In this document: positions 1,114 through 61,400 of the stretch, piece by piece
Layout: each line of letters opens with the position of its first letter
Position numbering within the stretch: position 1 is the stretch's first letter
Assembly: GCA_015680685.1 (NCBI GenBank)
Contig: MNCI01000690.1
Location: forward strand, 584,319-648,206
DNA: 63,888 nt
Origin: Gnetum montanum
Taxonomy: Eukaryota; Plantae; Gnetophyta
Direction: 5' to 3'
The notes under the pieces: generated by a model
What the model was told of the DNA's origin: nothing
The model's database searches: none
Seen by the model: only the letters and a program-made list of their open reading frames with translations
Translations under genes and position numbers: made by a program

Positions 1114-1118
1114 TTGAA

Positions 1119-1628
1119 TGTGACATCTTGTTTTCAAATGTCGTAAAAATACAAATGCTTAATTTATTACATTCACTATTTTCTTAGATAATATATCGAA
1201 AACATTATAAATACTTAATAAATGAATTAACTAATAAATAAATAAATGGTACTAAAGAATTAAACAAGGAAAATGGAAAAATTATATTAATGGAAGAGAA
1301 TACTGTAACACCCTTTTGGGTTGTCTTCCTATGTTATGTAAGCCTTAGAGGAAATCTGCCACTACCACCATGGTTAGGCTATCCTACCAAAGGGGTGATC
1401 AATATCTTTTTGTCCCACTTCACCTGACTCCCATTACTTACCTTTTCCAGCTCCAAAACTCCATGCCCAACACGACCTCTAATCCCCACCTTAAATGGCA
1501 TAGGTCAAACCCTTTTCCAAGGGATACATGAATAATTGTAACCCCTCATAACTAGGCGCCCCTTCATTAGAAGGTTAATTACATTGTTTACAATTGTTTC
1601 CACCCTTAACAAGGGATGGGACATTACA
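1119..1628 (-). repeat. 3' LTR of chromovirus element
   Basis: TG...CA termini. Colinear with 10347-10856 at roughly 85-90% identity by eye, mostly transitions. Confidence 0.95.
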
Positions 1629-1630
1629 AT

Positions 1631-1640
1631 CTACCCCCCT
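1631..1640 (-). other. Polypurine tract (PPT)
   Basis: AGGGGGGTAG on the minus strand, 2 nt before the 3' LTR TG. Confidence 0.85.
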
Positions 1641-4600
1641 TAAGCATCTAGCTTGTCCTCGAGTGCTTCTTCTATGTCCAGCTGCTCAACTGCTGCTTCA
1701 TCATTATGCTCTTCAACTTGAATTCCTTTATTTTCCTCATTATCATCTATACAAATAAAAGATCAAAAATTATAAACATAATTTATTACAGCCATAACAA
1801 ATACAATTTATTATTTAATATCATGATGTTCAAAAGGTTGAGGATAAGTATTTAAAATAAACTTCCTATTTTCCCAAGTCTGTTGATCANTGGTTTAACT
1901 TCAAAGCTGGTGTTGGATCATAATGGTAAACTATTCCAATATAACACATATGGAACATCATTTTCATGAAATTTCATTAGCAAACTCACATAAAAAACTA
2001 GATGAATTTTAAACATTTCTAAAAGATTCAATTGATATGCTACTTCACCAATTCTTTCAGAAATTTCAAAAGGTCCACAAAATCTAGGTGCCAATTTAGT
2101 ATATTTTTCCAATTTAAGAGAACTTCTAGTAGGTTTTACTTTCAGTAATACTTCATCTCCTACTTGAAATTCTTTTTTAAGTTGATGTTGATTTGCATAT
2201 CCTTTATATTTATCTTGGGTAACTTGTAAATTTTGTTTTACTCTTGTGAGAATGTTTTCCATAATTTTCATTTCTTCTTTCTTCCATTCCATTCTTAAGG
2301 TTGGATTTACCCAGGTTATTGGTGTACGGCAATTACGTCCATATACTACTTCGAATGGTGTTTGATGTATGAACCTTGATAATTGTTATTATATGAAAAT
2401 TCTACCAGATGTAAATGATTCTCCCACGTTTTTGGTCTACTCCCAACATAGCTTCATAGGATATCTTCTAATATTCTATTTACACATTTAGTTTGTCCAT
2501 TAGTCTAAGGGTGATAAGTTGTGCTAACTTTTAACCAAGTTCCAAGCTCTTTCAAGAAATTTCTCTAGAATTCAAATATGAACTTGGGATCTTTGCCGAA
2601 GTGATAGATTTTGGACAATCATACAATCGAAATACTTCACATACAAATTTTTGGGCTAACTTTTTGTTGTGTTTCTAGATTTCAAAGCTATAAAATGTGT
2701 CATCTTTGATAGACGATCAACTACTATGAAAATTGAGTTATTTCCCTTTTTGGTTATTGGCAATCCTGCAATGAAATCTATAGTGATAACTTCCCATTTC
2801 CAGGTTGGAACTTCTAGAGGTTGTAATAATCCACTAAGTTTTTTCTATTCATCTTTTATTCTTTGACATTATGGAAAATTTTTAATGTATGAGGACACAT
2901 CATTCTTTATTCGAGGCCAAAAATAAGATTTGTGAATTATCATATAGGTCTTAATATAACCTGGGTGTCTTGCGTATGGTACTTCATGTGCTTCACATAA
3001 CAACCTTAGTCTCCAATTTTCTTCCAGTATGCATACTCTTTGACCTTTCATTGATAAACCATTACAAGTAAGTTGATATTGAGGCTCATAGGAAATATTT
3101 GTTAAAATCTTTTTAAAATAAGGATCATCTTTTATTTGTCCCTTGATTTCTTCTTCCATAGGAGTTGTTACGACACCTATCATTAAATTCCACATTCGAC
3201 TGAGGGCATTTGCTACCACATTTTTCTTATTGAGAATATATTTGATTTCAAAATCATATTCAACCAATAATTCCATCCATTGCCTTTCACAAGTATTCAA
3301 AATAGGTTGTCTTTGCAAATATTCTAGACTTTTATGTTCTATTTTTAGTACAAACCTTTTTCCTCAAAGATAATGTCTCCAGACTTTCAGAGCATGAACA
3401 ATTGCTAATAATTCTAAATCATAGGTTGAGTAATTTACCTTGGCTCCTCATAATTTACGAGATTCATAACATACCACTTTATCTTCTTGTGAAAGAACTG
3501 CACCAATTCATATTTCCCAAGCATCTATGGATACTTCAAATGATAATTCTTCATCCAAAATTATCAAAATAGGTGTTGTTGTAAGGAGCATCTTTAATCT
3601 AAGAAAAGATTCCCTTCATTTTTCATCAAATTTTAACACATGTTTCTCCTGCAGGTCAGTTAATGGGGCTACCAATGTGGAATAATATTTAATGAAACAT
3701 CAATAAAAATCAACTAAACCTAAGAAACTACGAACTACTATAACATCTTTTAATTTAAGCTAATCCCAGATCACACTAATTTTTGCTAGATCTAGTAGCA
3801 ATCCTTTTTTGGAAACTATATGTCCTAAGTATGAAACTTCTTCCTTAAAGAGTTCGCATTTACTCAATTTAGCTTTTAGTTAATGTTCTTTAAGAATTTC
3901 CATTGTAATTTTCAAATGTTTGATATGTGCTTCTCTTGGCTTAGAATAAAAAAGTATATTATCCATAAATACTATAACAAATTAATTAAGATATTCATGA
4001 AAAATATTATTCATTAATGTCATGAATGTTGTAGGTGCATTAGTTAATCCAAACAACATCACAAAAAATTTGTATAATCCATATCTGGTTCTAAAAGTAG
4101 TTTTCTCAATATCTTTCTCCTTAATCCTTATTTGGTGATAACCAAATTTTAAATCAGTCTTTGAGAAATAACATGCACCCATAAGTTGATCAAATAAATC
4201 ATCGATTCTAGGTAAAGGATAAGTATTTTTAATTGTCACTTTATTCAATGCTCTATAATCGATGCATAATCTTAGTGTACCATCTTTCTTTTTAATGAAT
4301 AAAACTAGTGCATCCCAAGATGATACACTTGGTCTAATTTTTCCTTCTTCTAATAATTGGTCTAATTGTACTTTTAATTCTCTTAATTCTAAAGTAGAAA
4401 ATCTATAAGGAGCTTTTGAGACAGGTTGTGTACTAGAAAAAATGTCAATGGCATGCTCGACAATTCTTTTTGGAGGTAGTTCTCTGATTCACCAAATACT
4501 AAATCTTTATATTTCTTAAGTTCATTCCAAATCTCAACACTTGAAAATTTTTGAGGTTGGGCTACTCTAACAAACAACATTATAGCACCTTTTTTTACTA

Positions 4601-6254
4601 ATCTTTTAGCTTGCTTAATAGTTATCATATGAATTTTCTTTGCTGTTCCTACCCCCCTTAGAACATTGACTCCATCAGTGGTTGGGACATTTAAAATATG
4701 AGTTCCAAAGTGGGCAATAACATCAAAGTTTTACAAAAAAGGCATTCCTAAATTGCATCAACATCACCTAGTTCAAATTCAAAAAAATTCATCAACAGGA
4801 GGCATGTTTTGCAAGGTAATGTTAATTTCTCCATACCTGGTATGTTTGCTCACACTTGTTCCATCTACCAATTCTATCTTAATAATTTTCTTAGAAGGTA
4901 AACTTAATTTCAATAAATTAATTAACTTTGGAAAAATAAAGTTATCACTCGCACCATTATCAATCAAAACTTTACCTTCAATTGAACCTTCAAAAATGAG
5001 TAAAGCAAATTGAAATTTATGCAAACCTGATTTAGTTTATGCAAATATCTTCTTCATTGTTATAGTAGTGATTGAATTTTTCCCTTTACTCATGTTTGGG
5101 TTCGATTTTGGATTTCTAATTTGGTTGGTCCTTTGTATTTTTGCTCAAAATTTTGGGCAATCTCGTTTGAAATGATCTTCACCACAAATAAAACATATAG
5201 ATGCTGATCAAGCTTTTTTCGTTGGTGTCTCTTCTACCATTACTTGTGGAAAAGTAGTTTGTCGAAGAGTTGTTTATCGAATGGTAACTTGTATCTTATT
5301 TGATTCCTCATAATCCTTAGCAATTCTATATGCTTCATCAATGGTTTGAGGATTATGAGCTCGTGTTTGGGGATGTAATTGAGCATGTAGTCCTCTAATG
5401 AATTTTAAAGCTAATTCTCTCTCATCCAGGTGACTTACATACTAACAAAGATCTTAGAATTCCTTATAGTAATCATCTACAAATCACCCTCCCAACCTTA
5501 AGGAATCAAATCTCATTTTTCACTCTTTGAGAAAATAATCAAGAACAAATTTTTGTTCAAAATCTCGACAAAAATTAAGCCAATTTGTAATTAAACCTTG
5601 AGATCTTAGTCCATTCCACCATGTTACCGCAAGTCCTCTTAAATACAAGGAGATAACTTCTAAATGTTCATGGCTTGACAAATTCCACATATCAAAGTAA
5701 TTTTTTATTATATCAAGCTAATCCTTTTCCTTAGCACTAGATCTAAGGGCTCCATCATAATGATCTAATTTTACTTTCTTAGCATGAACTTGTATCAACG
5801 ATTCTCTAGGTGAATTAAGCCAGTTCCCATGTCCCTCATCTTCAATTTTAATTCTATAGCCTACAGGAGGAATTTCGATATCCTATCCACTAGTAGGTAG
5901 AAGTTGTGTTTGGTGTGGATCCTTAGAAGGGAGTTGATCTTGGTGTTGATGTTGTTCCCTAGGTAGACTATGGGTAGGTTTTGAAGGTTGAATAAGATGG
6001 TCAATTAATTGTTTGACGGAGTCTGCAAAGGAATCCATCTTTCCTTGCACATCTGACCATTTATCTTCCAAACTTTGAGATAATTTCTTAATTTTCTTAG
6101 ACATATTTTGCATCTCTATCCTAAACCCTTGGTTTGAGTGACAAAGTTCTTCTTGAACACCCTTGATCTCATTAATTTAATCTTCAAGGGAATTCATCTG
6201 ACAATTGACTCAAGCTTCCATTTCTCTCCAGTTTATTCTTTGGATTCCAAACAT
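1640..6254 (-). pseudogene. gag-pol (gag, protease, RT, RNase H, integrase, chromodomain) with stops and frameshifts
   Basis: Protease [32 protein letters not shown]. RNase H WMELLVEYDFEIKY..NVVANALSR. Integrase Zn-finger HEVPYARHPG and GPF motif KLAPRFCGPFEI. Chromodomain remnant QQTWENRKFILNTYP (~1845-1890). Start position approximate. Confidence 0.9.
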
Positions 6255-6844
6255 CGGTAAGTTGAAAAAATTAGGTATGTTAATAATCCTCAGCCTCTAT
6301 GGCCCTTTTTATGGGATTTGAAATCATTTAGTTAGTTGTGGAAGAAGTTGAAACTGTTATGGATTTCTCACCGAGTACTGAATCTTAATTATTTTTGGGA
6401 CCTAAAACAATGAATTAAATGCTAATTTTCTATAGTCCAAAAGCTAAATCTAACTATTCCATTGAGTCCAAAAGGTTCAAATCTATTAGAATCAATTTTT
6501 TATTTGGTTGAAAATGGACTCAAAATTCAAAAGTTATAGCTATTTTAAGTTTTTTCAACTTTCACATTTTTCAAGACTTTCCAAGAGCTTACCCATCTCA
6601 ACTCTACTCTAGAACATGCACACTTAATGATAAAATTTTTATTTATGTTGTTACCGTAGCACCAATTTAAATTTTTGTAAATAATTGAGGACATTTTCTA
6701 TTTAAACTAAAACTAACAGGCACAAATTTTTTTTGAAAAATTTTCGTCAGTTCACGAAAATTTCAGAATTCCTGTTAATTATCGAAAAAATTCAATTTTT
6801 CCATCAATTCATGGACGACCCATTTCAGGTCCACACGATGGCCA

Positions 6845-7100
6845 GAAGGTGATGATGGGATGGCATAGCAGACAGTGATGAATGACATGAGAGGTGATGA
6901 TGGATGGTGCGAAAGACAGTGATAGGCAACACGGAAGGCAATGATGGACCATGCAAGAGGTAGTGATGGGTGGTGTGGAAGGCAGTGATGCGTGGCTCAG
7001 GAGGTAGTGATAGACTACACGAGAGGCAGTGATGAGCGGTGTGGAAGGTAGTGAAGGATGGCTTTGAAGGCAATGATGGTAATGACGAGAAGGCAGTGAT
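6845..7100. repeat. Degenerate ~22-bp periodic array (core RGGYAGTGATG, ~12 copies) in GC-rich leader segment
   Basis: Cores at ~6845, 6870, 6890, 6913, 6934, 6957, 6978, 7001, 7023, 7044, 7066, 7088. Looser GC-rich repeats continue to ~7500. Confidence 0.8.
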
Positions 7101-7918
7101 GGCATCCACAGTTGCAAGTGACGTGCAATTGTAGGCAGTGTGTAGTTGCAGGCGATGGTAATGCTGCACGATGTAGGGCAGCAGGGTTGCACACTGTAGA
7201 GTGACAAGCTATGCAATGGTGGAAAAGGCATAAGAGATAGCGGCAGCAATGGTTGCGCAAGAGATAGCGACGTGGGCAACAATAGGCGACAGCAGGATAG
7301 TATGACGAACAATGGTGCAACAATGGTAGGTGATCGATAGCAATGTGAGCGAAGTGGGCGGTTGATGATGACAAGGATATGCAGGTGTGGGTTTCTTTTC
7401 TAGTCCCTTTCTTGGGCTAGCCTTAAGGGCCAAACTTATCAACCACGGCCTTGCGACCTGGCCGCAACCTTGCCACTACTCGCTGTGACTTGCTACAGCC
7501 TTGCTGCAAGCCCTGGCATTTTTTTTTAATAATATTTTTTAAATGATTGGGGCTTCAGTTTGAACCTGAGACCCCTTGTTTTATTAATTTTTTTAATTAA
7601 AAAAACATTTTTTAAAAAAAATTAATAAAGATAATATATATATTTTTAAATTTTTTTAACTTTAAACTACACGAAAAATGAACATATCCTTCAAATTTTG
7701 ATGAAATTGGTACCGTTGGAATCATCTCAAAGAGTGCTTTGAGTTAAACTACAAATAATTCTACTTTAATAAACCTAAAAATCCAAAAATCCAAAAAAGT
7801 GAACGTTAACTTTTTCTTTAAAAAGTATACATTAGCTTTTATTAAATCTTTGGTTATCTTAGGTTATACTTTCTCTAGGCTTTAGAGAAGCTTGAAGATT
7901 TTCTATTATAAAAAATTT

Positions 7919-10111
7919 ATGGCTTCCAAATGTCAAGCTTCATCTTAAGCCCCTTTCAGTAGCTCTTTATTGCCTAATATTTTTTTTACACCAAAATAAT
8001 GTCCTTTCTGATTGGGTTCCTAGCTTGCTTTGTAGAGACAGTTTTCAGCTCCTTACCGCTTCTAGATTGGCTGATTTACTAGTTTTTTCAATTTTTAAAC
8101 TTTCCCAATGCAAGAGTATTCTTTCGAAGTGGTTTGAGTAGCATGATAATGAGAAAAGTTCTATTTTTCAATTAGTTTTTGAAGCAATAACAATCCTTCC
8201 TCTTGATATTAAAGTGATCTTAAGTTTTCAGCTAGGAGATGATTCTTTAATTCTTTCAACTCATTCTCAACAATTTAAATCTTTTTGTAAGAAGGAATTA
8301 TCCAATTATGTTACTAATTCTGCCATTCACAAAAACCAATTTGCTCGTAAAGATTTCGTTAACGATGTTCATTTTGAGTTATGTCTATTCATCAATAGCA
8401 AGGTTTTATGGTATAGATAATAACCTAAAGTTAATTCTTATTCTATTTTCATACTTCATGGTGTCATAACTAGTAGAGTTATGATTGGTCATTGTCTTGT
8501 TTTTCTGGTTGGTATACTGTTATGACTAAAATTACTATTTCCCAACAAAATCCTTCCAAATCTTATATCCTATGTTGTATATCCTTGATCATGTGTATGA
8601 TCCTAAGTTATGATCATCCCAAGAAACTTTTTACTCATTACAATCCTTAGTTGTGCCTTGAATTTCTTGAAGATGAGGGGGTTATAAGGATCAAGATTCT
8701 ACATGCCAAGAAAGGTCAACTAGCTTTACAACAAGCTTGGAGTCAAGAAGAAATTAGTGAGGTATTTTCATGTTTCATTATTTTTTTGTTTGTTGATTAT
8801 GTTTTTATTTTATGTATTTGACAATGCAATCTGAGCTGCAGAATGAACCAACGCAGAGTGTTAAAACTACATAGGTTGAAGAAATTCAAGGTACTTCATC
8901 CTTTGGTATGGTTCAATCACAAGAACAGATCTCACTCTCTATTCCCAAGGTATATATATTTAAATAAAACTTACTTAGTTTAATGTCTTATCTCTATTTT
9001 TTTTTCTAATAATTTTTTTTTATATAGAGGCAATGTACTAGGCAAAGTTCTGGTAGTCCAGTTATTATAAGACAACAAACCCAACAACAGGCTCCACAAT
9101 AATCCCAACAAATTCAGTAGAGTTTAATACAAGATAAAGGAAAATAAGCAAAGGTTAGTTTTAGTTATTTAAAGGTTAAAATACTTCCCTTATTCCTTTT
9201 TATGATGTTGATTTTTAATTTTATTTTTCTTATTTTTATTTTTATTATTATCTTTTTCTGTTGTAGAGGTCTATGAAGCAACAATACTTTATCCAAGAGA
9301 TGGATAGAGGTGATGTAGGTGTTACTTCTGCATAGACTCCCAATCTACCACCTAGATCACCAGTCGTGCCTTCTTTTTTTGTGACACGTGGAAGAGGTTT
9401 TCTTTCATAGGTAGCACCAACATTATTTTCTGAGTCTATTTCAATGACTTCTTCTTTCTCAATCTCAAGATCTTCTTATTCAATAGAAAAAATAGTGGTA
9501 GCTGCTAAAGAAAAACTTGTGCTTCTTCAGCGCATTAGCCAACAAATCTCAGATAATAAACCCTATTCTATTCGTGAGGGCGTCTACCATCTATGGGAAT
9601 CTTGGTCATGTGACTTCAAGGAAAGTTATGATTTAATACAAGCTGGAGTTCCATCACCTTTTCATCCAATTTCTGAAGATGCTCCAAATGTTGTAAAAGG
9701 TCTGGAGCAACTCTTAGAAAAATTGGAAAGTGCAACGCACTATGCTCGCCATTTAGTAACTTGTTAATGATTTTTTCAAATTCATAATGATCAATTTCCA
9801 CGTAATATTTATTGTTATTTTTTTTATATTTGTTTGTTGATTTGCTTAGAACTCATAATTTAAATCTTGTTTTGCAGAGGAAAGAGAAAGAATGGCAAAA
9901 AGACATAGATGATCGATTAATACAAATGGATATGTTACAAACCTAACTTAAAGAAAGGAGAAGGCATGCAACTAAATATATTAAACAATTGTGTGATGGA
10001 CTAGCTAGATGCAAAGTAGTGCTTAGCAAGGTAGATGCTACTACTAAAGAAAGAGAATCCCAATTGAACATAGTTATAGATCTTCTTGAATCTTTTGGTC
10101 ATAAAAAATAA
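7919..10111 (+). pseudogene. Five-exon antisense accessory gene of the retrotransposon: PMD/MAIN-like N-terminus, Q/S-rich linker with DKGK, coiled-coil C-terminus
   Basis: Exons 7919-8761, 8842-8949, 9028-9153, 9267-9755, 9878-10111 (1800 nt). Four T-rich GT..AG introns of 80, 78, 113 and 122 nt, all phase 0. Exon 4 is in frame with ORF 9444-9767. Internal stops are TAA/TAG (interpretable as CAA/CAG), plus two compensating frameshifts in exon 1. AATAAA signals at ~10215-10300. Confidence 0.8.
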
Positions 10112-10332
10112 TCATAGTTGTCTTGCTTACATTTTCCCATTCTACTTCTTTTCCCTATTCTTCTTTTTCTATAGCCTGCTATGTACTTCCTCTCACTCCC
10201 CCTTGATTACCAAAATAAAATAAAATAAAATAATTTTTTCCTGTACTTTCTTATTTTTCTCAAATGTACTTGTGTTTTTCAATAATAATAAAATAAAGTT
10301 TTTCTTCCACTTTGGCTCCTGAATTATGGTTT

Positions 10333-10344
10333 GCTCTTATACCA
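10333..10344 (-). other. Primer binding site (tRNA-iMet type)
   Basis: TGGTATAAGAGC, one mismatch to TGGTATCAGAGC, 2 nt from the 5' LTR end. Confidence 0.9.
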
Positions 10345-10346
10345 AA

Positions 10347-10856
10347 TATGACATCCCGTTCCTGGATGTCATAAAAATATGAATGCTTAATTTATTACAT
10401 TTACTATTTTCTTAGATAATATACCGGAAACATTATAAATACTTAATACATGAATTAACTGGTAAATAAATAAATGGTACTAAAGAATTAAACAATGAAA
10501 ATGGAAAAATTATATTAATGGAAGAGAGTACTATAACATCCTTTTTGGTTGTCTTCCTATGCCACTTAAGCCTTAGAAGCAATCCAGCACTGCCACCATG
10601 GTTAGGTTGTCCTGCCAAAGGGGTAATCAATCCCTTTTCTTCCTACTTCACCTAGTTCCCATTACTTGCCTTTCTTGGCTCCGCAACTCCATGCCCAGCA
10701 TGACCTCTAACCCCAATCTTAAATGGCATAGGTCAAACCCTTTCCCAAGGGATACATAAATAATCGTAACCCCTCATAACGAGGTGCCCCTTCGTTAGAA
10801 GGTTAATTACATTGTTTACAATTGTTTCCACCCTTAACAAGGGATAAGACGTTACA
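10347..10856 (-). repeat. 5' LTR of chromovirus element
   Basis: Direct repeat of 1119-1628. Ends ...GTTACA followed by TSD TTGAA. Confidence 0.95.
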
Positions 10857-10861
10857 TTGAA

Positions 10862-13800
10862 CCCTAGCATCTCCTCCACCACCAAGAAATTGGCAGTTGT
10901 GGGGAATTTCTCCCTTATAAGGAAGTTTAAGAAGACAGACCCCTTGACAGTGACCCTAGATTCATTAAAAGACTTAAGGACACTTGTTGATGTAGGTTGT
11001 ATTTGCTTAGTTAGGCCCAAGCTTTCAACAATCATCAACATGCACTTGATACACTTTGAACTACCCTACATGTATGGTTATGAATAAAGGAGCCCTAGTT
11101 ACTTTGCCATTTTGGGGATTAACCTTGATTTCACTATCGCTAAATACTAGGAGTGTTAACTTTCCTCCCTTGATGATGGAGGGACCAGCACTACATGGAT
11201 GGCTTCCTCATTAGTAAGGATGTCCTTACTAATGGGAATGGAAGTTAACATTTTGACTAACACCTCACAATGTGTGCGGAAGTCATGATTAGGTCATATA
11301 AGCTTATAGTTATGTTCTTCTACTTGAGGGATTTCTTGACTTGACCCATCCCACTGAGGAATTTTTTATCATTGGTTGTGGACTTGTTGTCCTAGATGTA
11401 CTTCACTTCCTCCATGTTTCCCAAAATGCAAACTTTAGCTTTAGGTTGTGGTTGTTGGGGCTTTTCCTCATTCTTTTGATTATGGTATTAAGGATCCTCC
11501 TATGGCTTATTGGTTGAAGCAGATTGAGCAGAGGAGGTCGTGAGTATAGCCGAGAGGGAAATGGGCTTTAGTAGGCCTACTTCCTTTCATGCCTTCATCT
11601 GCTTGTCACCCTTGTTGCTAGGATTTTTCTCATAGTTCTTCCTTTGCTTAGTTGAGGTTTTCTAGTTATCAGTCATTGGTTGTAAAGAAGAGGTAGTAGC
11701 ATTAGCCATCACAAGAGGTCATTGTGCAATTGGTTGGGCTACAATTGGTTGGGTTGTGTTAGGCTACGATATTCTAATGACAAAAGTTTTCCTTAAAGGT
11801 ATTCGTGATGTCACTCTTATGAAAAAGAGGGATCTAGAGTTGGTGAAAGCTAAAGAAGCCTTTTCATCACAAGGGGATACTCAGATCACATATGGCTCTC
11901 TTACAAGTCACCGATCATCATCGAATGCATTCAATAGGTCTTTGTACACTTGCATCAACTAATTTTGTGACTAGACTAGCTTAGAAGCATATAAGACCAA
12001 CTCCCTCCTATCTATCATCCACTACAGGTCATCCTTCAGCATAAGGCAAAAGTATGTGTCATGACCAAGCAATTGGTAATAATGGCAAAAGATATCTAGT
12101 TTAAAGTACATAGGTAATTGGGGATCATCCTTTGTTGCTTGAGTGGGATCCTTGACTATTTCACATAGCCACTCATGCTTCTTTCAAATGGTTTCAATCA
12201 TCTGTTTGTATTGGATGCACCCACTCTTCAAAAGCTAATCTAGTAACTTGGATGGTTTCAAAGGTAAGGCAATGTATTTACTTTAATATTTATTATCAAA
12301 ATTTGGCTAGTTGCAATTGATGCAATGGCCCTAAATGTTGATGGTTGTCTATCATGGCTATTAGTGAGAGCCTTGGGTAGGTTGTTCCTTGGCCCCTAGT
12401 TAGTAGTCTTTCCTTCTTTGGTCACTATTGCTATGGCCATGTTGTTTTGTTTGTTCTTTTCCTTATCCCTCTGTGTATGTTAATTTTTATATGCTATGTA
12501 GGCTGGATCATGACTAGCCTCCACAGCATCCTTTATGTTCTTGGTTTGGGAAAACACTTGGCTAAGGGACCATGGATCAAGATAGTAAAGTTTTGACTTG
12601 ATAAAGTCATTCACTGCCCCCTTGAATATGGCTAAAAGGTGGTCCTCAATGATGGATTCTAGTATTTCATTCAACAACCCATTTCATCATTGAATGAACT
12701 TCTGTATAGGTTCTAGGGGTCCCTTCTTGACCTTCATGAGTTGGTCAAGTGTAGTGTTGGGCCTCAAGTTATACTTGAAGTAGTTGATAAATTGGGCTAT
12801 CAAGTCCTCCAAAAAGGATATGGATCCTCTAGGTAATGTGCGGTACCAATCAAGTGCTTTCCCAATCAAAGACATAGGGAGAATCCTCATGATAGTATGA
12901 GGCCACAGTAGCAATAGCAAGCACTTGGATCTAAAGGTTATAAGGTGAGCATTGGGATCACCTTCTCCGTTATACTTACTAAACTAGGGAATAGAAACAC
13001 CAAGAGGAAGTGTCAACAATGGGACCATAGGACTAATGGGATCATCCTAGTAGAAATCCATGATCTTGACAGTTTGTGAAGTAGAGGCTTTAAGCCCCTT
13101 CAACTCCTCCATTAGGCCTTGGATCATCTGGAAAGATTGATCCAGGCCTTGTGGTGGCCCTATTGGCTGTGGGGTTTGCACATATGGTTGCAACATTTTT
13201 TGTGAGGCTTGTGGCCTTGCTATGAATTGTAGGATGGAAGAAAGAGATTATGTTATGGTTGTAGCTTATGGACCAAACAAGGAAAAGGAAGTTTGTGCCA
13301 ATACATGAGACACAAATGGGATAAAGAAGGTGTGTAACCCCTAAGTTGATTAGGTTCCTATGGTGGATCCCCCATGACTGGTCCATGGGCTAATGGTAGT
13401 AGCTACCACCATCATTGGTCGAATTAACCTAGGTTGGGTAGCAAGGGGCATGGAGAAGTGAAAGGTGGTTGGCTATAACACTGATTATGCTTAGTGTGCA
13501 ACGATGGTTGGTGTTGGCCCAAACATGATTAGGAATGATGGGAATGAAGGTGGTGGGACATGCCCATAGGAACAGGCCAAGGAGATAGATATGGGCATCA
13601 TGGCCTTGGGGATCCCTTATTGGAAAAGTTCCCTCAATTTTTCAGATTCAGACTCTACCATGAATTCACTTTTCCTCCTCTGGTTTCCCCTCAGAGGTAA
13701 CCTTCTGGTTATCCTCATCAACCTCAATGAGAAGGGCTAAGACACTAGCATATATGTCATTAAGGGGTATTTGGTCATAAGAGGGAATACACTCCTTTCC

Positions 13801-13914
13801 ATCATGATGGATGAGCTCAAACTTCTGTTTAGCCTCTACTTCCACTCGTGGGATTAACATGCTAGCCTGGATCTTGGCACAAATGAAGTTATATTGTTCT
13901 TCATTTATTGTCAT
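10862..13914 (-). pseudogene. Tat/Ogre-type gag and N-terminal protease, degenerate
   Basis: Retrotrans_gag-like motifs (12480-12960), Pro-rich linker, a CHYHQLLGHDT-type Cys/His motif near 12060-12090, and protease LKSFNESRVTVKG..FLVVEE. Confidence 0.75.
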
Positions 13915-14777
13915 GGAACCAAGACTTTATCCTCTAATTCTAAGAGATTACCTTCATTCCATTATAGTAGGGTCTTTGGGATCATAAACCCTCATGTGTT
14001 GTTGATCTAACCCATTGTCAGTGTAGTTATAAGGCAACTTGGTCAATTGTGAGAGACACATGGCTAGTTCCTTTAAAATGGCTTGAAATAGGCTATAAAA
14101 AGGAAAAAATAAAATCCAATCCTAACATGTGGAATTTAAAAATGATTAAAGGAAGTAAAAATGGCTAAAAATGAAGCATTTTTTATAATTAGTAAGTAAG
14201 GGGTAATGGGGGTTTACCCCTTTACCAAAAATAGAAAAGAAATGTTGGTGTTAAGCCTCACCCACACGCCTCCCAACTATCTCTATGTTGGGTATGTTAA
14301 GGGGGAAAAGAAGGGGAGTGAGACAATGGAAATCTCACACCTTCTAATCCAATGTTGATGAGGGGGGAAAGAATAAAAACCAAAGTGGAAATTTGGTGTT
14401 TTTCCACTAGAATTTGATTTTGGTAGGCTACCAATTTTCTTAACTAGAAAACATGGGGAGGGGAGCTAACTTCCAAAAGTTTGATGGTTTTCAAAAGGGT
14501 TGCACCACCCACCTTGGAAACTAAAAAAATTGGCAGCAATAAGGAAAACGAATGAAGGGTTTCAATGATGGCTTTGGGCTAAAAAATTCATTGCAATTAC
14601 TATGAAAAGCCAACATCTAACCATCTGCAACTTCCATGCTACAGTTTTGGTCAAAGGAGGGAAGGCACGACATTGATTTTTCAAAGTTTTAACTACAAAA
14701 AATCAAAAAAAAAAACCTGCAAATGGTAATGTTGGCAATGGAGAAAAATAGATCTAGTCACAGAAATCAGGCAGAGG

Positions 14778-14794
14778 CTCTCCTTCTAGCACCA
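14778..14794 (-). other. PBS of Tat/Ogre-type element
   Basis: TGGTGCTAGAAGGAGAG shortly after the LTR end (..CACAACA-ATTTTC). Resembles the TGGCGCTAGAAGGAGGG PBS seen in Tat-clade elements. Confidence 0.7.
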
Positions 14795-14800
14795 GAAAAT

Positions 14801-16382
14801 TGTTGTGACCAAAAAAATTAATCTCTAGAAAACCAGTGTATCCAATGCATCAACCTCAACCTAGAATCCCCAAGGCCTCTGAAAAATGAAATTCCAAGTA
14901 ACCTGGATGATTCAGCATATCACCCAGGAACTTACAGAATGCAAAATGAATGATGCAAAATAAGAAATACAAATCTGAAAATCAAAAGTAAAATATTTTG
15001 CATACAAATTCAAATTTTAAACTTTCTGTAAACAAATAAAGAATAAGTTTAGGGGTGTGTATAGGTGTTTCCCTTGAGAGAGCAGAAGAGGGTTCACTGG
15101 GACAGGCTTTTAGAGCCCATTGAAGCTTATGTGATCTACTTCATGATGATGCTCAACCACCCCTGGTGTTGTCAAACCTCCTTTGCTACAACTCTAGATT
15201 TGTAACTTAGGTTACTACTGGGGATGAGAAAATTGAGAAATCTAGCTACCAAATTGCTCCATGTTGGGGGGTTTGGGAGTCCCTGAAATGCAATGTAAAC
15301 ACCAAAAATCCACAAGTATCAGGGGGATTGCAAATGCTATAATGCTTCCACGTTAGGATTCACAAGAATGCAACCATGGGAGATTGCAAGAGCTCTTGAG
15401 TGCTTGAAAATGCCCATGTGTAAAAATTCCAAAAGTCTCCAATTGTGAAAAAATGTAGAACTGTGAAAAATTGCTCAACCTAAAAATGGTGTTTGAAACT
15501 AGTTTTTATAGGTTTAAGGCCACGAATGGTGCAACAAAATGATTGTAATTTTGCTACACAATGACTACAAATTGGCTATAATTTTGCTTCAAATTTCTAC
15601 CTCATACAGGTAAGATGGTTGCCCAAATTTGGAGGGTTACCATATATAGTAAGTGCCTTTCCCCATGACCATTTTGTTTACTATAAATAGTAATAGAGAC
15701 TCATCTTCTATGTTGGGGATAGGTCTTCCATGTTGAGCCTTCTACCATCCTTGCTGAAGTGGCTGGTCAACGTTGGAGTGCATTGAGTGTTGAAATCTGG
15801 CTTTTGTGGCTTCCATGTTGTGGGCATGTCGTTTCCACTTTGGGGGAGGGGGGGAATGTTTCCATGCTAAGGAGGAAACCCCCATCCCTCCACACTAGGA
15901 ATAGGTAAGATTTACCCCCTACAAATATTTCTAGCATAGAAAAGTATATATTCTCCATAAAAACCCATCAAATTAACATTTCTGACATTCCAAAAGGCAA
16001 TTTTAATCCTCTAATGCCCAAATATAAATACTAGATTACTTTTTCACTTGGGGAATTTTGACCACTTATAAGGCATTTTTTAGCCCCAAAAGTATGGAAT
16101 ATGTACTTCCTCATATGAGATGCCTATTAGGCTAGCATTATGTACTAGCTCATGTGGAAAAAATAATATAAAAATATTTTCATAATTATAATTTATTTTT
16201 AATTTATGTTTTTTCCCATGAGAGCTTCTACCCAATGTTGCCAAATGATTTCTGGAATATAAGCTTGATCACTATTTCGTGAAAGAGCATCCTTTTACCC
16301 TATCTTACCAGCATCTATGAGGTAGAGCCACAGAGGAAGATTCCACTAAATTGGAGAGAGAGCCAAATTTATATCTTCACTA
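14801..16382 (-). repeat. 5' LTR of Tat/Ogre-type element
   Basis: Starts TGTTG adjacent to the PBS. Minus-strand TATA (tttttatagg ~15503). Right end estimated from aaatttatatcttcacta. Confidence 0.6.
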
Positions 16383-16399
16383 TCAACCAAGAATTATGA

Positions 16400-18000
16400 T
16401 AAGCAATATTTCCATATCTCATTTTAAATTTCTTACCTAGATTCCATCATTAATCTACAATTTTACCTAAGATTCGAAGACTAGTTGGGAGATCGAAGCC
16501 ACCTAAGGATCCTTGCTACAGTGATTATAATTTCAGGTAGGCTAATTTGGTGTTTTACACCTTTAGGTTTTGGTAATTTTGATTAGTGTAAATTATTTAC
16601 CTTTTTTCACTTGTTCAATAACTATTCACTGAATTATCTAATTTCTCACATTTGAATATTTTAATATTATTTTCTTTACATTGGTTATTTTTGAGATTTA
16701 TTACCATGCATGGAATGTTACTCAACATTTTGATCATGTTTTGACAAAGTTTGACATACTTTTTTGTTCCAAATTCTACCAAAAATTTAACTATATAAAT
16801 AAGGTTTCAAGACATTTTTCAAATTTTTAATTCCCAAGATGATCCTAGATGTTAACAGCCTAAAAGAAAATAATATCTAGCATACCAGCACAAACCATAA
16901 GGCACTCTCTATTATCCATCATAACTTGGTCATGACATAATTTATTCTATTTTTGAATTAGAATAACTAAGTAACTTTTTTTCAGAGCCCCTTGGCCTTC
17001 GAGCAATGTAGAATTATCAAAAAACCCAAAAATATACTTTTTAGAGCTCCTAGAATGTTTGAAAATTTAAAATCAATAATTGATGATATAATAATAGTTG
17101 TAGGAATTGTCTTGAGAAGATTGGATTCCCATTTTTGAAACATTTTAATTTTTTAGACACTTATCTAATCCTACATTTTGATTTTAGCTTTATTTGGCAT
17201 ATTATAACCTACCATTTGATAGTTCAATACCTTACATTTATTCTCGTTTAGTTCATGCAATTGGTTGGATTCATCTCCCCACCACCTAGGGATTTGTTTT
17301 TTACAAGATTTATTTAATCATTGGATTTTAGTTTAGTTTCGCTAACTATATGATTATATGTGGGTTCTAGACTCACCAATTATTATTATATGTGCATTTT
17401 AGAGTCACCAAGCATATGTGAGTTTCAAACACACTAATTATTTATATGTGAGTTTTGATTCACTTATCATATGTGGGTTTTTGACTCATCAATCATTTAT
17501 ATGTGAGTTTTAGACTCATCAATTATATAAAAGAAATATAGGCTTTAGACTCATTATCATTGGAAGTTGATCTATTTTTCGGTTGAATCATGGGTAGTGG
17601 TGGAGTTTTTAGTTTATAACTAACTATTGGTTTGCCCAATTATCATCATTATTTGTTTGCTTTAGTTAATCTTTGTTTGTAGCTACCCATGTGCATGACT
17701 ATCCATCTACCTAATGCCTCCAACCAAAACCATGAGTGAGTATTTTTACTAGTTGTTTTACCCTACTCAATCTTAAGACTAATTTCCTTGGTTTTTTTAT
17801 GCTTCTTAGGTGATTATATCAATTTTGATGAGGAGGATTTAACGGAGGTAGTTGATGATTAATCTTTATCTTTTAGAGATTTTAGCTGATATTATAATTC
17901 TAGTTTAAGTTTAATTCTATGTTGTAATATTCAGCTAGGATTATGAATTTGCAATGTATATGGGATTTGTACTATACTTTTGCCAACCTTAAGTGTAACC
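16400..18000 (+). mobile_element. LTR-like remnant (Tekay-like) with internal tandem repeats
   Basis: Non-coding. Contains ~7 degenerate copies of tatgtgRgttttagactcaYYaa at 17358-17555. Boundaries not defined. Confidence 0.4.
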
Positions 18001-18759
18001 AAACTCAAATTTGAACTTAGTTACATTGTGTGGTTTCTTACATTTTATTCAATTTGACAGTTATGCAACATTTAAGTCTAATGTCTTTCTAGATGCAAAT
18101 GTATTTTCAATCTCATATTTCCATATATTGGATCAAGTAGTTTGTTCACGTTTAATTTAATCTTGCACAAGTTAATTTCAAGATTTATTTTTATGGATCT
18201 ATTATTGTTAATTTCTAGCTTGGGCAATTGGTTCTATCCTTTTTCTGGTAGTCAATAGATTAGGTTTGATATGCATGAGGCTATTTTCATTATTTTTAGA
18301 ACATTTCACATTTTTTTCTATATTTTTTTGCCCCTATGCACCTGCTTTCTTGGACACCTACTACTTAGACTATTTAATTTTCTTGGCATCCATTCAATTT
18401 TTTCAAGCAACATTTTACTTTTTTACAATTTATATTCTTTATATAAGTAATGCTTTCCCAACCTAAGCCTAATAGCAAGGTTTTACATATCGAATGTATT
18501 ACAAGCCTGACATATTCTATAATGATATTCATTAGCAGTATTCATCTTCATTTTATTTAAATCATCTTCATAAAATGTTACTTTCTTAACTTCTAAATAA
18601 ATTAACCCCTCAAACTTAACATCTAATTTAGAAGAATAATATAGATTATATGAGTCATACAAGCTTACAAATATATTAGAATGAAAATACTTCAAAATTA
18701 ATGAAAACTCCTTTTTAGAGAAAATTAGTAAGAGATCTCATCATACCTATGACTCGGTG

Positions 18760-20200
18760 ATTTTTAGTTAATGTCATAGAAGGGAATAGAAGTATCTAAA
18801 TCTTTAGAAATGCTACTACATTTGAAGTCACATTAGTTAATGCTACTATATGGTTAGTCAAAAGTTAAGGAGCTACATTAGTTATGATGCAATAGGAAGG
18901 AGAGTAGAGACCTATAGAACTTTTGACTAACCATATTAAAGATGTTCTCAACATTCCAGCAGTACCTCCAACTATTTTTACTAAATTGAATGATGGTCAA
19001 CTAATACTTGGAGCTAATGATAAAGGAAAGAAAATAATCGATGTAGACTAACATGAAAGTATATTAAAGATACTAGTGCAAGTAAGGAAACAATCCAAAA
19101 TATTTTTAACATTCCTATAAATGTCATTATAGCCTAGTTTAAGTTGATTTCTACAAAGAGAAATTTGATCATTACAGAATTGAGACTCCAACATGCTAAG
19201 TTGAAAATCCAAATTACAAGATAAGCTAGCCCATCTCAAAATCCAAATACAATACCATGTAAGGTACATTGCATTGGAGTAATTAGAATACTTTAGAACT
19301 GAACAAGTTAATGAACTTCTGGTGAAACATCACTAGCTAGAAATGGAAAAGCAACATGGGATGCCTCAACTACAAATGAAGAAACCTATGCCTATTGCAA
19401 AGCCAGTATTGCGTTAGAAGAGAAAAATAAGAAACTTGCTATTAATAATAGAAGATTAGTTAATATAGAGAAAAAGAAAAATTAGCTAGAAGAAAGCCTT
19501 AATAATCTAAGAAAATAATTTACCAAAGTTAGTGTGGACATCAATAAACTAACTAGAGAAAACAAAAATCTGTTAATGGAGGAAGTTCACATGATCTACG
19601 AAAGTCTACTATTGAAACTACTACATAGCATAATAAAGTAAACATGAAAACTTGAACACAAATTTTAGAGCACAAACGGGCATGCAAAAGCAAGTAAATG
19701 AGGCAAAATTAAATTAGAAAATGCTAAAATCAATGTTGTAGTATAACAAATGCCCAAATTATAACCAATCTTTGACAGCATGACAATGATTCACTAGGTA
19801 AAGATTAAAATGAAAGAACTACAGATTGAGTACATGACATAGTATATGGAGTTATCCAATCTTAGATATCTGAACCTAGTAATGTTAATAGTAGGAAGTT
19901 AAGAAAACAAGCTTGAGAAGCAGTTGGAATCCATGTATCTACTATACGAAAAGAAGCATAAGGATTGCAATAAGGCATAGCAAAAATCACATATTATCAA
20001 TGCAAAGCTATATGTATTAAAAACAAAGTATGTAGATCAAACAAATGTAGCAAAAAATTTGGAAAAATAACTTTCAGGCACTAGTAAAAGCATTTAATAC
20101 TAAAAGAAATAAATTTGCAACTTGGTACATTAAACTTAAGAGATTATTCTCACAGTTGTCATGTCCTTGGAAGGTGCTAACAATATCAAAACTTACTAAT
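18760..20200 (+). pseudogene. Degenerate ORF with DKGK motif and long coiled-coil, probably TE-derived accessory ORF
   Basis: Reads ...HIKDVLNIPAVPPTIFTKLNDGQLILGANDKGKKIIDVD*, then (from 19378) EETYAYCKASIALEEKNKKLAINNRRLVNIEKKKN*LEESLNNLRK*FTKVSVDINKLTRENKNLLMEE. Multiple stops and frameshifts. Confidence 0.45.
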
Positions 20201-56720: not shown

Positions 56721-57219
56721 ACAGGAAAGAACACCCTTGGATCCAATGGACATCCAACCCCTCTTAGTAATAGAAGAATGAGAGAGAGGTAGAAGAGATC
56801 CAGTGGTCATGAACAATCTCCCATGAGTGATATTGCTGCATCATCCTTGGAGAAGACAATCCCGCTTCCAGTCCATGCTCCCCACTACAATCACAATAAA
56901 AGCAAGGATTAGTATATAAAGTGTACCACATAGCGGTTGAATACCTTGTCTCGTCAATGATTTTATCTAGCTAAGTTGTGATTATGGTAGATTGGTTACT
57001 TGTTAATGTTAGTGGGAAGACTGACAAATGGGTTAAGTGAGAGAAGTAGTCCATAAAATTCAGAAAAAGCTTAATACAAGGAATACTAGAAAGAGGGTAT
57101 CTAAATTCACAACAATAAAAAGAAAGAATTTACTAAAAATAGTTGTGAAGATGCACACAATTGGATGGCATTAATGGGGTAAATAAAAAGAATTTGATTG
57201 TAAAAAATGTTTTAAGGTN

Positions 57220-57557
57220 AAGTCACTGAAAGTGGTTGGTTTTGATTTGGACTAAGGATGGATCCTACTAAGTCATTTAATCATGAACTCCACAAGGGAC
57301 TTTATGTGACCAGAATAAGGAACTCCATTATATTCTCTCTCTCATCCATTTATGCTTTTCATGCCTCACCTCACTACCANGAATCAAAACATGAAACTGG
57401 TAGTGAGGTGAGGCATGAAAGGCATAAATGGATGAGAGAGAGAATATAACGGAGTTCCTTATTCTGGTCACATAAAGTCCCTTGTGGAGTTCATGATTAA
57501 ATGACTTAGTAGGATCCATCCTTAGTCCAAATCAAAACCAACCACTTTCAGTGACTT
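57220..57557. repeat. 160-bp inverted repeat (57220-57379 vs 57398-57557, 2 mismatches); likely assembly artefact
   Basis: The left arm is bounded by N at 57219 and N at 57380. Confidence 0.9.
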
Positions 57558-58488
57558 CGCATCGACATTTTAAGACTAGTCCATCCCCTGAGACACAAGA
57601 ATGCTCCCACAAAACAACCACCATTCTAATTTGCAGAAGAAGTGGGAAGTGAGAAAGAGCCTTAGTTAGAGGAGACAAGACAGGTCCCATAACCAGTGCT
57701 TGTAGCCCTTTTATTTGGTCTAAGGGGTGTTCTTTGAATTCCCATATTTTTGTTTGAATGGGAACCACACCATGCAAAGACCCATGTGTTTTTGCATTTA
57801 TGTTGTCCAAGGGATGTGCTTTGAATCCTCATCTTTTTTTTATGAGGACCACACCATGCAAGGACTTATTTGACTTCCTATTGGGAAATGACATAGAACG
57901 GTGAGAAGCTCATGAGAACACCCTCGCACACAGGAAAATGGAAAAGCATGAAGAATATCACATCCCTTTGAAGCCACACCTTGTTTGAACCTTTGATTCC
58001 TTCCCAATTTCAGAAACTACACAAGTCACAAATTTATTAAGATTATATCAATGAAAAAGAGACTGCATGTTTCCAAAATAAGGAAAACCATAGAGTGTGT
58101 GGATGGGTGGATGATGTGGACTCACTGCTTATTACATGAAAAGAAACCATGTCTTAGTTATCAGTGATGACATTCAAAGTTAGAAACCAGACATCAACAA
58201 TCAAATCACAAATGATACATACCATCATCGAGTAGCATATTACCATTGTACTTAGCACCTTATTAGCAAAAAGAGTAGAGAATTACACCAAACACAAGAA
58301 AATATAGAAGAAAGTAAAAGAGTATTCAAGAAATACTAAATATACTAACGATGGTGTAACACAAAAACTTAGAAAAGATTAATAACTAGAAAAACAAAAA
58401 GATGTAAAACAAAGAATATGAAAAGAAAAAGTTATAAAACCATAAATGTGTAAAAAAAAGTCAAAAGACTAAGGAGCTGCGTAAAGTG

Positions 58489-61400
58489 TTAGTATGGATG
58501 ACCATCTTCTCCATGACTAAGTTGGAAGGGGGAGACTTGAAAGATTGAGTGTGGTTGTCCATCTAGTGAGATGTTTGTTGAGTTCGTAGGCTTGGGTTCA
58601 TGGAAAGGTTTCAGTTGTTGGATGTTGACTAATTGCTTCTTATCTGGGCTATCAGGTTTATATATAATCATGGCCCTAAATCGAAAATTCTCTTAAATAA
58701 TGTAAGGTCCTTCTCACAACGTTTGAAATTTAGTTCGTTGAGGTATGTGTGTAGGATTCCAATAGAGAACCTTGTCTCTTGATTGAAACTTGACTTTCCT
58801 TATTTTGAGGTCATGGCGTTTCTTATTGGATGCCTTATGCATTTCATTGGATGATAGGACCATTAATTGATTTTTATCTAGCAAGTTGAGGTTCGTTAAT
58901 CTTTCCTTTTGTGCTAGACTTAGATCCATGTCAAGGTCATAGCCTGTAGAGAGTGTACAAAGCTCAAATTGGATGGGCAATGTTGGTAGTTTTCCGTACA
59001 TGAGCTCATAAGGAGAATAACCTATGGAAAGCTTCCATGTGGGATGATAGGCCCAGAGGGCATCATTTAATTTGGTGCTCCAATCCCTTCAGTACTTGTT
59101 AATAGTAAGCATTAGAATTTTTGTAATCTCCTAATTAGTGACTTTAGCTTAACCATTGGTTTAAGGATGATAAGGTGTTGTGACTTTGTGCTCAACCCCC
59201 AAGTGCTGCATAAGTTTTGGAAAAGTGACACCTATGAAATGAGTTCCATTGTCAAAAATTAATGCACGAGGCACACCAAACATGTTTATGATATTCTGTT
59301 ATACAAACCGAGTAGTAGTAGTGGATGTGCAGTCAATGATAGCTGCTGCTTCTACCCACTTAGTGCAATAGTCAACTGCAACTATTATATACATCTTTCC
59401 ATTTGATAAAGGCATGATGGGACCCATAAAGTCAATGCCCCAAATATCGAATGGCTCGAGAGGTTGAATCCATTGTTGTGGCCCCTCCATTTGAGCTGTC
59501 ATTCCACTATCCCTTTGACAATGATCATAAGCATGGAAAAATTGGTGTGCATCCTTGAAGATTGTTGGCCAGTAATATCTTACCATGAGGATTTTTATGG
59601 CTGTGCATCTCCTAGCATAATGGCCCCCACAAGGGCCTTCGTGAGCATCCTAGAGAAGGCGTACTTGATCTATGTCAAGGAAACACTAGCGTACTAGGCC
59701 ATCAAGACATACTTTGTAAAGATTCCTATTAATTTTCATGAAATGCTTAACCTAGTAAAGAAATTGTTGTTTCTTTCGGGTGTCCAATCCTTGTGGTAGT
59801 TCTTTCTTGAGTAGATAAGTGAGAATGGTGTCATACCATCTTGGTTCATTGGGCATTTGTGCATTAATAGCCCCTACAAGGAGAGATTCATTAGTAAATT
59901 AATCAGATAAGGGGCTCTCTTTCTCCTTGTTGTCCCATCTTCGTCATGATAAGTGGTCAATGATCACATTTTCCACATGCTTTCAATCTACCATTGTGAG
60001 ATTGAACTCTTGCAAAATCATGAGCCACCGTATGACACGGGGACTCACCATTGGTTTATTCATTAAGAACTAGATGGCACTATGATCTGTGTGCATGAAC
60101 ACTTTATAACCAAGCACATAGTGCCTGAACTTTTCTAAGGTAAACACCACCGCCATTAATTCCTTTTTCGTAGTGGTGTAGTTCAACTATGCACTTGCGA
60201 TACTTCGACTTGCATAATGAATGTAATATGGACATTTTTGATCATCCAGCTATGTGAGCACTACCACCAAAGCATAATTTGGTGCATCAGTCATCACATG
60301 AAATGGCTTGGACCAATTGAGTACTTGTAGATTTGGGATTTCAACAAGCTTTTACTTTAATTATTGAAAGGTTGTTTCACACATAGGGGTCCAGACAAAT
60401 GGTGCATCTTTCTTTGTTAATTTAACCAATGGCTTAGTGATTTTAGAAAAATTTTCAATGAAGCATCGATAGTAGCCAATATGACCAAGGAATGTCTACA
60501 CTTCTTTAACTGTTTCCAGTTGACGGGTTATTCCTTGGATGACCCTTATCTTTTCAAGGTCCACTTCAATTCCTGCTTTTGAGATATAATGCCCCAAGAT
60601 TAAGCCTTCTTGGACCATAAGATGGATCTTTTACCAATTGAGCGAGAGGTTTGTTTTGATACATCTCCTTAACACCTGCTCAAGACAGTCCAGGGCTTGC
60701 TCGAATGTAGCTCTGTAGGTAGAAAAGTCATCCATGAAGACTTCTACCTCACTACCAATTTATTATTGGGAAATGCTAAGTACTAATCATTAAAATGTAG
60801 CTAGGGTATTACATAGACCGAATGACATCAAAGGGTAAGCAAAAGTCCCCCAAGGACTTGTGAAAGTCATCTTCACCTGATCCTCTGGTGCGATCTAGAT
60901 TTGGTTATAGCCACTATAATCATCCAAAAAGTTGTAGTAGTTGTAATCAGAAATGGTGTCCAACACTTGGTCAACAAAAGACAACAAAAATTATCTTTGA
61001 AAGTTGCCATATTGAGTAGTTAGAAGTTGATGCACACCCGCCATTTGCCTTCTTTCTTGGGCATGATCACGAGTGGACTAACTTACTCACTATCTGTAAT
61101 AGGGTGGATGAATGCTGCCTTGAGGAGTTACTCGATCTCTTCTTTGAAAATTTACTTTAATTTGGGATTCAAATGCTGCTGCGGTTGTCATTTCGGCTTG
61201 ATGACGGGGTCAGTGTATATCCAGTGCTGGCATATTCTTGGATCTATTCCTATGAACTTGAAATATGATTAGGCAAAGGCTACTGACCATTTTTCCACAA
61301 CATTCATCAACATCTTCTTTTGTCCTATAGCAAACTTGGCATTAATAATGACAAGCCTTCCATTTTTCAAGAACACATACTCCATTCTGGTCAGTAATGT

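Follow-up and report, generated by a model that had tools for sequence, protein, structure and literature searches.

A predicted five-exon antisense gene relic in the leader of a Ty3/gypsy retrotransposon from Gnetum montanum

The element and the antisense gene in its leader

A complete LTR retrotransposon of 9.7 kb is directly observed on the minus strand at 1119-10856 of the window (the whole stretch of 63,888 nucleotides of Gnetum montanum DNA analysed here), and between its primer site and gag, on the strand opposite to the element, sits a decayed gene that is predicted to be spliced. The parts of the element are as follows.

1114..1118, no strand: left target-site duplication, TTGAA (identical 5 bases at 10857-10861)
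1119..1628, minus: 3' LTR, 510 bp, TG...CA ends (LTR comparison)
1629..1640, minus: polypurine tract, beside the 3' LTR (sequence)
1811..1920, minus: place of the expected chromodomain, broken by an assembly N at 1890 (sequence)
1918..4488, minus: pol, decayed, with RT, RNase H, integrase zinc finger and Tf2-1-like SH3 (Pfam)
4782..6254, minus: gag and protease, decayed, gag start at 6254 (Pfam)
10333..10344, minus: primer binding site, 2 nt from the 5' LTR (sequence)
10347..10856, minus: 5' LTR, 510 bp (LTR comparison)
10857..10861, no strand: right target-site duplication, TTGAA (matches the left copy)

The hallmarks of Ty3/gypsy elements are present (two LTRs with TG...CA ends, target duplication, primer site and polypurine tract), and the domain order given by Pfam, gag-protease-RT-RNase H-integrase, is that of Ty3/gypsy. 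The LTR pair shows 65 differences in 510 positions, 54 of them transitions (87% alike, K2P 0.144), and decay has altered the first two bases of one LTR. Pfam matches comprise RVT_1 (E 1.4e-33), RT_RNaseH (2.7e-24), Integrase_H2C2 (5.4e-14) and SH3_Tf2-1 (8.8e-19) in pol, together with Retrotrans_gag (E 1.8e-12) and Ty3_capsid (8.9e-5) in gag, the closest database relatives of which are only 21-24% identical. The primer site, with one mismatch, is presumably of the Met-tRNA type. The element sits inside an older gypsy-like element (10862-20100 of the window), the target sequence continuing to the left of 1114; a gag match of the older element (E 0.006) lies on the minus strand near 12600-12900.

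The element is probably a chromovirus of the Tekay lineage, an assignment based on primer type, size, the missing extra RNase H and RT motifs. The traits tabulated for Tekay fit (a presumed tRNA-Met primer site; a 5-bp duplication; a length of 9.7 kb within 5.6-20.7 kb), as they also fit Reina, CRM and Galadriel, and the RT motifs are, we presume, Tekay-like. No chromodomain was matched by Pfam on flanks of 25 and 40 residues, the assembly N at 1890 falling inside its expected place; the remnant near 1811..1920 may resemble a chromodomain end. A Tat, Ogre or Retand identity was ruled out because there is no second RNase H among the Pfam matches; in addition, the integrase zinc finger follows about 80 residues after RNase H, and the primer site is not of the Arg/Lys/Asp type.

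The antisense gene and its candidate 3' signals occupy the plus strand.

7919..8761, plus: exon 1, 5' end uncertain, with a weak PMD-like stretch at about 8050-8300 (frames)
8762..8841, plus: predicted intron 1, GT-AG, 80 nt (splice-site ranking)
8842..8949, plus: exon 2, S/T/Q-rich linker (frames)
8950..9027, plus: predicted intron 2, GT-AG, 78 nt (splice-site ranking)
9028..9153, plus: exon 3, Q-rich linker (frames)
9154..9266, plus: predicted intron 3, GT-AG, 113 nt (splice-site ranking)
9267..9755, plus: exon 4, 163 codons, 2 stops (frames)
9756..9877, plus: predicted intron 4, GT-AG, 122 nt (splice-site ranking)
9878..10111, plus: exon 5, charged helical tail, possibly coiled coil, TAA end (frames)
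10214..10297, plus: AATAAA copies, candidate poly(A) signals (at 10214, 10219, 10224, 10287 and 10292)

An earlier, sequence-only reading had proposed these five exons (7919-10111, plus strand) between the primer binding site at 10333 and gag at about 6254, joined by four T-rich GT-AG introns in phase 0 and followed by poly(A) signals just before the primer site. On rechecking, the coordinates were correct, every intron starts with GT and ends with AG, every exon length is a multiple of three, and five AATAAA copies are present, the last ending about 40 bases from the primer site. This exon-intron pattern is directly visible in base composition, the introns containing 52-61% T and 13-25% GC, the exons 20-39% T and 32-38% GC. 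In a simple ranking, three of the donors come 1st, 2nd and 4th of 126 GT sites and the fourth 12th; three acceptors come 1st, 2nd and 5th of 64 YAG sites, with that of intron 1 outside the top 12, so that the intron 1 acceptor and the intron 4 donor are the weaker sites. The reading frame of exon 1 changes at least twice, first inside the ten codons that follow the ATG at 7919 and again between 8462 and 8483, its open stretches (7896-8462 and 8477-8761) being in different frames. Because of these changes and of further acceptor-like sites upstream at 7862, 7878 and 7885 (ranked 4th, 8th and 7th), the 5' end of the gene is unsettled and a fifth intron is possible. The coiled-coil tail of the sequence-only reading fared less well: exon 5 is indeed 47% E/K/R/Q/D, but its heptad score is matched by 18 of 150 shuffles and argues only weakly for a coil. 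The equivalent score for the last 60 residues of exon 4 is matched by 4 of 150.

Stop codons are depleted in the spliced frame, exons 2-5 containing 7 in 318 codons compared with 22.4 +/- 4.4 in shuffled sequence (P=1.5e-4 from 20000 shuffles, a value that is somewhat generous since the frame was chosen by the earlier reader). The observed signal comes from exons 4 and 5, in which the spliced frame has 2 internal stops against 11 and 12 in the other frames, and 1 against 8 and 10, respectively; exons 2 and 3 are too short for a frame preference (1 stop against 0 and 3; 3 against 2 and 3). The open stretches of exon 1 hold 3 stops in 161 codons and 1 in 95. Were the exons a chance reading of AT-rich leader DNA, the missing homologues and junction reads (described below), the lack of frame preference in exons 2 and 3 and the frame changes needed in exon 1 would all be expected; the depletion of stops, particularly in exon 4, and the U-rich blocks ending exactly at top-ranked GT/AG sites that join open frames in phase make this explanation highly improbable. 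The locus very probably retains the relic of a real spliced gene in antisense, its introns being predicted from the DNA.

A later nested insertion of a DNA transposon is argued against, since the last poly(A)-type hexamer lies about 40 bases from the primer site and the antisense gene has no long terminal inverted repeat on its flanks; likewise, no transposase remnant was found near it by Pfam. Elsewhere in the window a decayed coiled-coil ORF at about 19260-20060, with weak Pfam coiled-coil matches, lies upstream of the older gag on the opposite strand and is possibly a second antisense extra gene; this region bears no likeness to the antisense gene described here and is not among the top PMD-like segments of the window.

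Relationship of exon 1 to the Plant Mobile Domain

The sequence-only reading had recognised in exon 1 the motif order of the Plant Mobile Domain (PMD), and proposed a profile check against PMD (PF10536) and DUF1985. That check was negative, with no match to either at E<=10 on any exon frame, and by Pfam the antisense gene is not a member of PF10536. Other searches were similarly blank. With the first part of exon 1 plus exon 4 as query, phmmer returned no match at E<=0.001 among 1,835,955,588 proteins, and word-index homologue searches returned none from 230 and 33 candidates. There was no homologue in the PDB, where the search by sequence gave no PMD relative, and no related locus was found; a PHROGs search gave no homologue (best E 0.05), an Atlas search with two stop-free stretches reached at best 0.76, which is below use, and PMD patterns found nothing in viral contigs.

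For a more sensitive comparison, PMD references were collected from metagenome contigs (at least 120 loci, of which 3 were dropped as chance or cut matches and 117 kept). Among the listed loci, 107 gave at least 90 residues; 36 sequences below 80% identity were retained for a profile and 20 were aligned. As a control, all 20 aligned PMDs match PF10536, two of them also matching DUF1985 weakly; the 36-sequence profile represents canonical PMDs only, diverged branches being outside the sample. Divergent PMD sequences do occur in these metagenome loci (L018:1758-2207 and L113:217-597), and in the long PMD-bearing loci no gypsy pol was found within 8 kb, among the matches listed. Of 852 pieces put through an unfiltered HMM search with the 36-sequence profile, none from exon 1 did better than E 3.4, and a local, frameshift-tolerant PMD alignment scored 16.5 bits against a window median of 15.3, a score equalled by 41 of 150 column shuffles.

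Unguided hhalign comparison placed residues 45-128 on PMD columns 55-135 and a second frame on columns 206-251, in order and on the motifs named in the sequence-only reading. The N-terminal alignment extends over 81 columns, nearly gap-free and in register (E 0.17-0.25). E values for the two exon-1 frames were 0.17 and 0.45, equalled by 7 and 13 of 60 shuffles, respectively, and on one profile the reversed query outscored the real one; global-mode alignments were out of register and were disregarded. When segments were matched end to end to the first 70 PMD columns, exon 1 ranked 1st of 160 window segments in all four settings; for the whole PMD core it ranked 2nd to 26th of 160, and for the second half 99th to 149th, with 47-56 of 60 shuffles as good. 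The best N-half setting (22.3 bits) was reached by none of 600 codon shuffles and none of 150 column shuffles, and beat 1179 of 1181 segments of other plant DNA, the two exceptions (72 and 91 bits, both in L027) probably being a second PMD copy. This N-half test was picked once the hhalign outcome had been seen, and the columns it spans contain the motif with which the profile sequences were fetched; over ten settings between 0 and 197 of 600 shuffles were as good, depending on the setting, and the score of 22 bits compares with 112-139 for true PMD members (in-sample). A single-sequence structure model of the gene was unusable (pLDDT 39), and forcing the fold onto the PMD alignment was rejected as circular.

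Of the motif order originally described, then, about 70 N-terminal columns align in register, if weakly, and the C-terminal motifs do not score. We regard the PMD likeness as suggestive only, and consider the chances evenly balanced that the gene encodes a remote fold of the PMD/DUF1985 type. The blank standard searches and the silent C-terminal motifs are what would be expected if this were the family's own spliced antisense accessory gene with some other fold, or with a role other than anti-silencing: one of many unrelated gypsy extra ORFs, acting for example in nuclear import, integration targeting or transcription control. Such diversity has precedent in REXdb (PMC6317226), which describes 314 groups of Ty3/gypsy extra ORFs, with 21.4% of extra-ORF proteins matching a known domain and no listed domain match for those of Tekay. 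Set against this are the 81-column in-register alignment and the first rank of 160 in end-to-end matching, and we judge a non-PMD accessory gene possible, if not favoured.

Decay of the gene and possible traces of sister copies

The gene relic is dead and has decayed along with pol. With 11 stops in 574 codons it carries the same load as pol (10 in 599, counted over 2692-4488), and all 11 internal stops are TAA or TAG, a pattern consistent with decay driven by methylation. When decay was simulated forward over half of the LTR distance, the gene acquired 5.6-10.3 stops and pol 4.5-6.7. On this basis most or all of the stops in the gene would postdate insertion, and the simulation together with the equal stop load suggests a gene that was still open, or almost so, at the time of insertion. 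We regard it as probable that the element family carried the gene and that it was open at insertion.

Alternatively, a host gene or a MULE/CACTA-type accessory gene may have been captured once with its introns, in antisense, and carried without benefit, a multi-exon structure being typical of genes and of the accessory genes of DNA transposons. PMD is known from both host genes and MULEs (PMC5418596), which suits such a capture, as does the fact that the segment is seen in one element copy. The similar decay of gene and pol, the completeness of the gene, with its 3' end 40 bases from the primer site, the lack of terminal inverted repeats or a transposase remnant nearby and the lack of a conserved host homologue in 1.84 billion proteins all speak against passive carriage.

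RNA reads bear on the same point. Reads of four of the six raw-read runs were aligned at 80% likeness (26% of X16 and X18, 2% of X13 and X14), and of the 654 aligned only one was at least 95% alike to the window copy. Among these 654 reads none spanning a splice junction reached the listing threshold, and most of the 625 from X13 and X14 were poly-T fragments matching the T-rich introns and were set aside. A few diverged reads (about 80-95% identity) fall on exons 1, 4 and 5; up to seven reads from four starts in X13 and one in X18, from another study, carry identical differences between 8563 and 8582. Within X13, first mates of the reads at 8519-8700 and 9975-10156 all map to the minus strand, as would fit sister copies read in the direction of the gene, if the library is stranded as usual. 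We take these reads as weak evidence pointing to sister copies, with a location inside LTR elements as a candidate; under passive carriage they could equally come from a host or DNA-transposon paralogue. Reads from X16 and X18 that share the LTR and primer site depart from the window sequence before 10301. Accordingly, some relatives have another leader and form a related subfamily, an observation that favours capture of the segment. The gene itself was examined in a single copy, sister copies resting on the handful of reads above, and no paralogue was found within the window or in 664 kb of metagenome loci. In a search of read sets by sequence words no RNA set was listed, and eleven DNA sets from four studies contained 5-44% of the words; the same locus explains this as well as a family does, and these sets were not used. 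On balance we consider passive cargo unlikely.

The phased array and comparison with known systems

Two further features lie between the gag start and the antisense gene.

6700..7500, no strand: island rich in GC and CpG (composition)
6848..7100, no strand: array phased at 22 bp, in which a 10-bp motif recurs about 12 times between variable 12-bp spacers (repeat analysis)

The island has a GC content of 44-52% and a CpG o/e of 0.63-0.67, compared with 0-0.56 elsewhere in the element, and is likely to be a promoter region. The array is directly observed, one repeat search counting 10 copies spaced 22 bp apart; it went unmentioned in the sequence-only reading and falls where the GC and CpG content of the element is highest. 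The motifs bound by VANC proteins are short and stand in tandem arrays in non-coding stretches of the element to which each protein belongs (PMC5735166, PMC10398659); tandem arrays are also common in plant gypsy elements, where they have no known function (PMC11963269). The layout of array and gene fits a VANC-like system, the array being a trait that is not specific to such systems. Separately, 55/30-bp tandem repeats occur in the older element at 17350-17530.

The relic may, in our preferred but tentative reading, to which we give somewhat less than even confidence, be the family's own accessory gene for a very distant PMD/VANC-type nuclear protein that binds the phased array against silencing. 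A promoter in the island at 6700-7500 would drive a transcript away from gag and towards the 5' LTR, which would be spliced and would receive its poly(A) tail shortly before the primer site. A retroelement can keep introns that lie opposite to its genomic RNA strand, and those predicted here would survive retrotransposition because they have this orientation. In the protein, a PMD-like and helical head would be joined through a low-complexity linker to a charged helical tail serving dimerisation, which is the layout of VANC; the protein would bind the motif array of its element and so hold off silencing. Anti-silencing through the array is a tentative suggestion, and it is doubtful that the full combination holds, i.e. 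a plant chromovirus with its own VANC-like system made up of a spliced antisense gene of diverged PMD fold and a phased target array beside the promoter.

The architecture had been called unusual in the sequence-only reading. Its position is less so: REXdb (PMC6317226) lists antisense 5' extra ORFs in 12% of 782 Tekay chromoviruses. For the combination of splicing and PMD likeness we found no precedent; the literature searched yielded neither a spliced nor a PMD-like antisense gene from the leader of a plant chromovirus, although subscription papers may hold one. The Tekay ORFs resemble the present gene in position, orientation and, as far as tested, element type, but they are unbroken whereas it is spliced, the two being likened by position and description only. 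Extra ORFs were called in REXdb by getorf as unbroken ORFs of at least 250 codons, and spliced accessory genes would escape for this reason.

Listed PMD matches in REXdb concern Ogre only (431 antisense 3' and 3 sense 5'; PMC6317226). These extra ORFs (PF10536, in PMD-A clades according to PMC5418596) are, as here, borne by gypsy elements and mostly antisense. They belong to the non-chromovirus Tat lineage, lie 3' of pol and have a clear Pfam match, whereas the gene described here is 5', spliced, without a Pfam match and in an element lacking the extra RNase H. A nearer parallel in organisation is VANC of VANDAL MULEs, which is a multi-exon accessory gene with a PMD-related fold, a coiled-coil dimer region and motif arrays; VANC (DUF1985) and PMD are structural homologues and VANC21 dimerises through a coiled coil (PMC13547354; for the former also 10.1101/2024.09.27.615353). 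VANC systems, in contrast, are found in DNA transposons of eudicots, and the present gene has no DUF1985 match, likeness in binding or demethylation being by analogy only. Antisense 3' genes are known from Retand, Grande and the fungal element Boty; like the present gene, brtn of Boty/BcGypsy1 (Botrytis) and the Retand and Grande ORFs are antisense accessory genes in Ty3/gypsy elements. The brtn gene is itself reportedly spliced. Retand ORFs can bear SMC-like coiled coils beside tandem arrays (PMC11963269). The comparison also draws on PMC9289625, PMC8365987, PMC7156037, PMC8616336 and PMC13317346.

To our knowledge, no function is established for the extra antisense genes of plant LTR retrotransposons. 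The five-exon example described here shows what surveys of unbroken ORFs overlook, and a 2020 review (PMC7264820) has called for a search for antisense and spliced transcripts. Sequence-specific anti-silencing has so far been shown for DNA transposons in the literature examined, and would reach retrotransposons if the PMD/VANC-like fold and the array target were both true. In that event the question whether PMD genes originated in transposons or in hosts, described as open in PMC5418596, would gain a new branch. Were the VANC-like reading true, this would be the first such protein-and-target pair in a retrotransposon, and the gene one of a class of spliced accessory genes missed by ORF-based surveys.

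The remainder of the window holds a receptor-like cytoplasmic kinase gene whose exons extend across about 23 kb (26755-49622, minus strand), with several tandem repeats in the long introns, a 160-nt, 99% inverted repeat at 57220-57557 beside Ns at 57219 and 57380, which is probably an assembly artefact, and a further decayed gypsy-like region with pol and gag at 58400-63800 on the minus strand.
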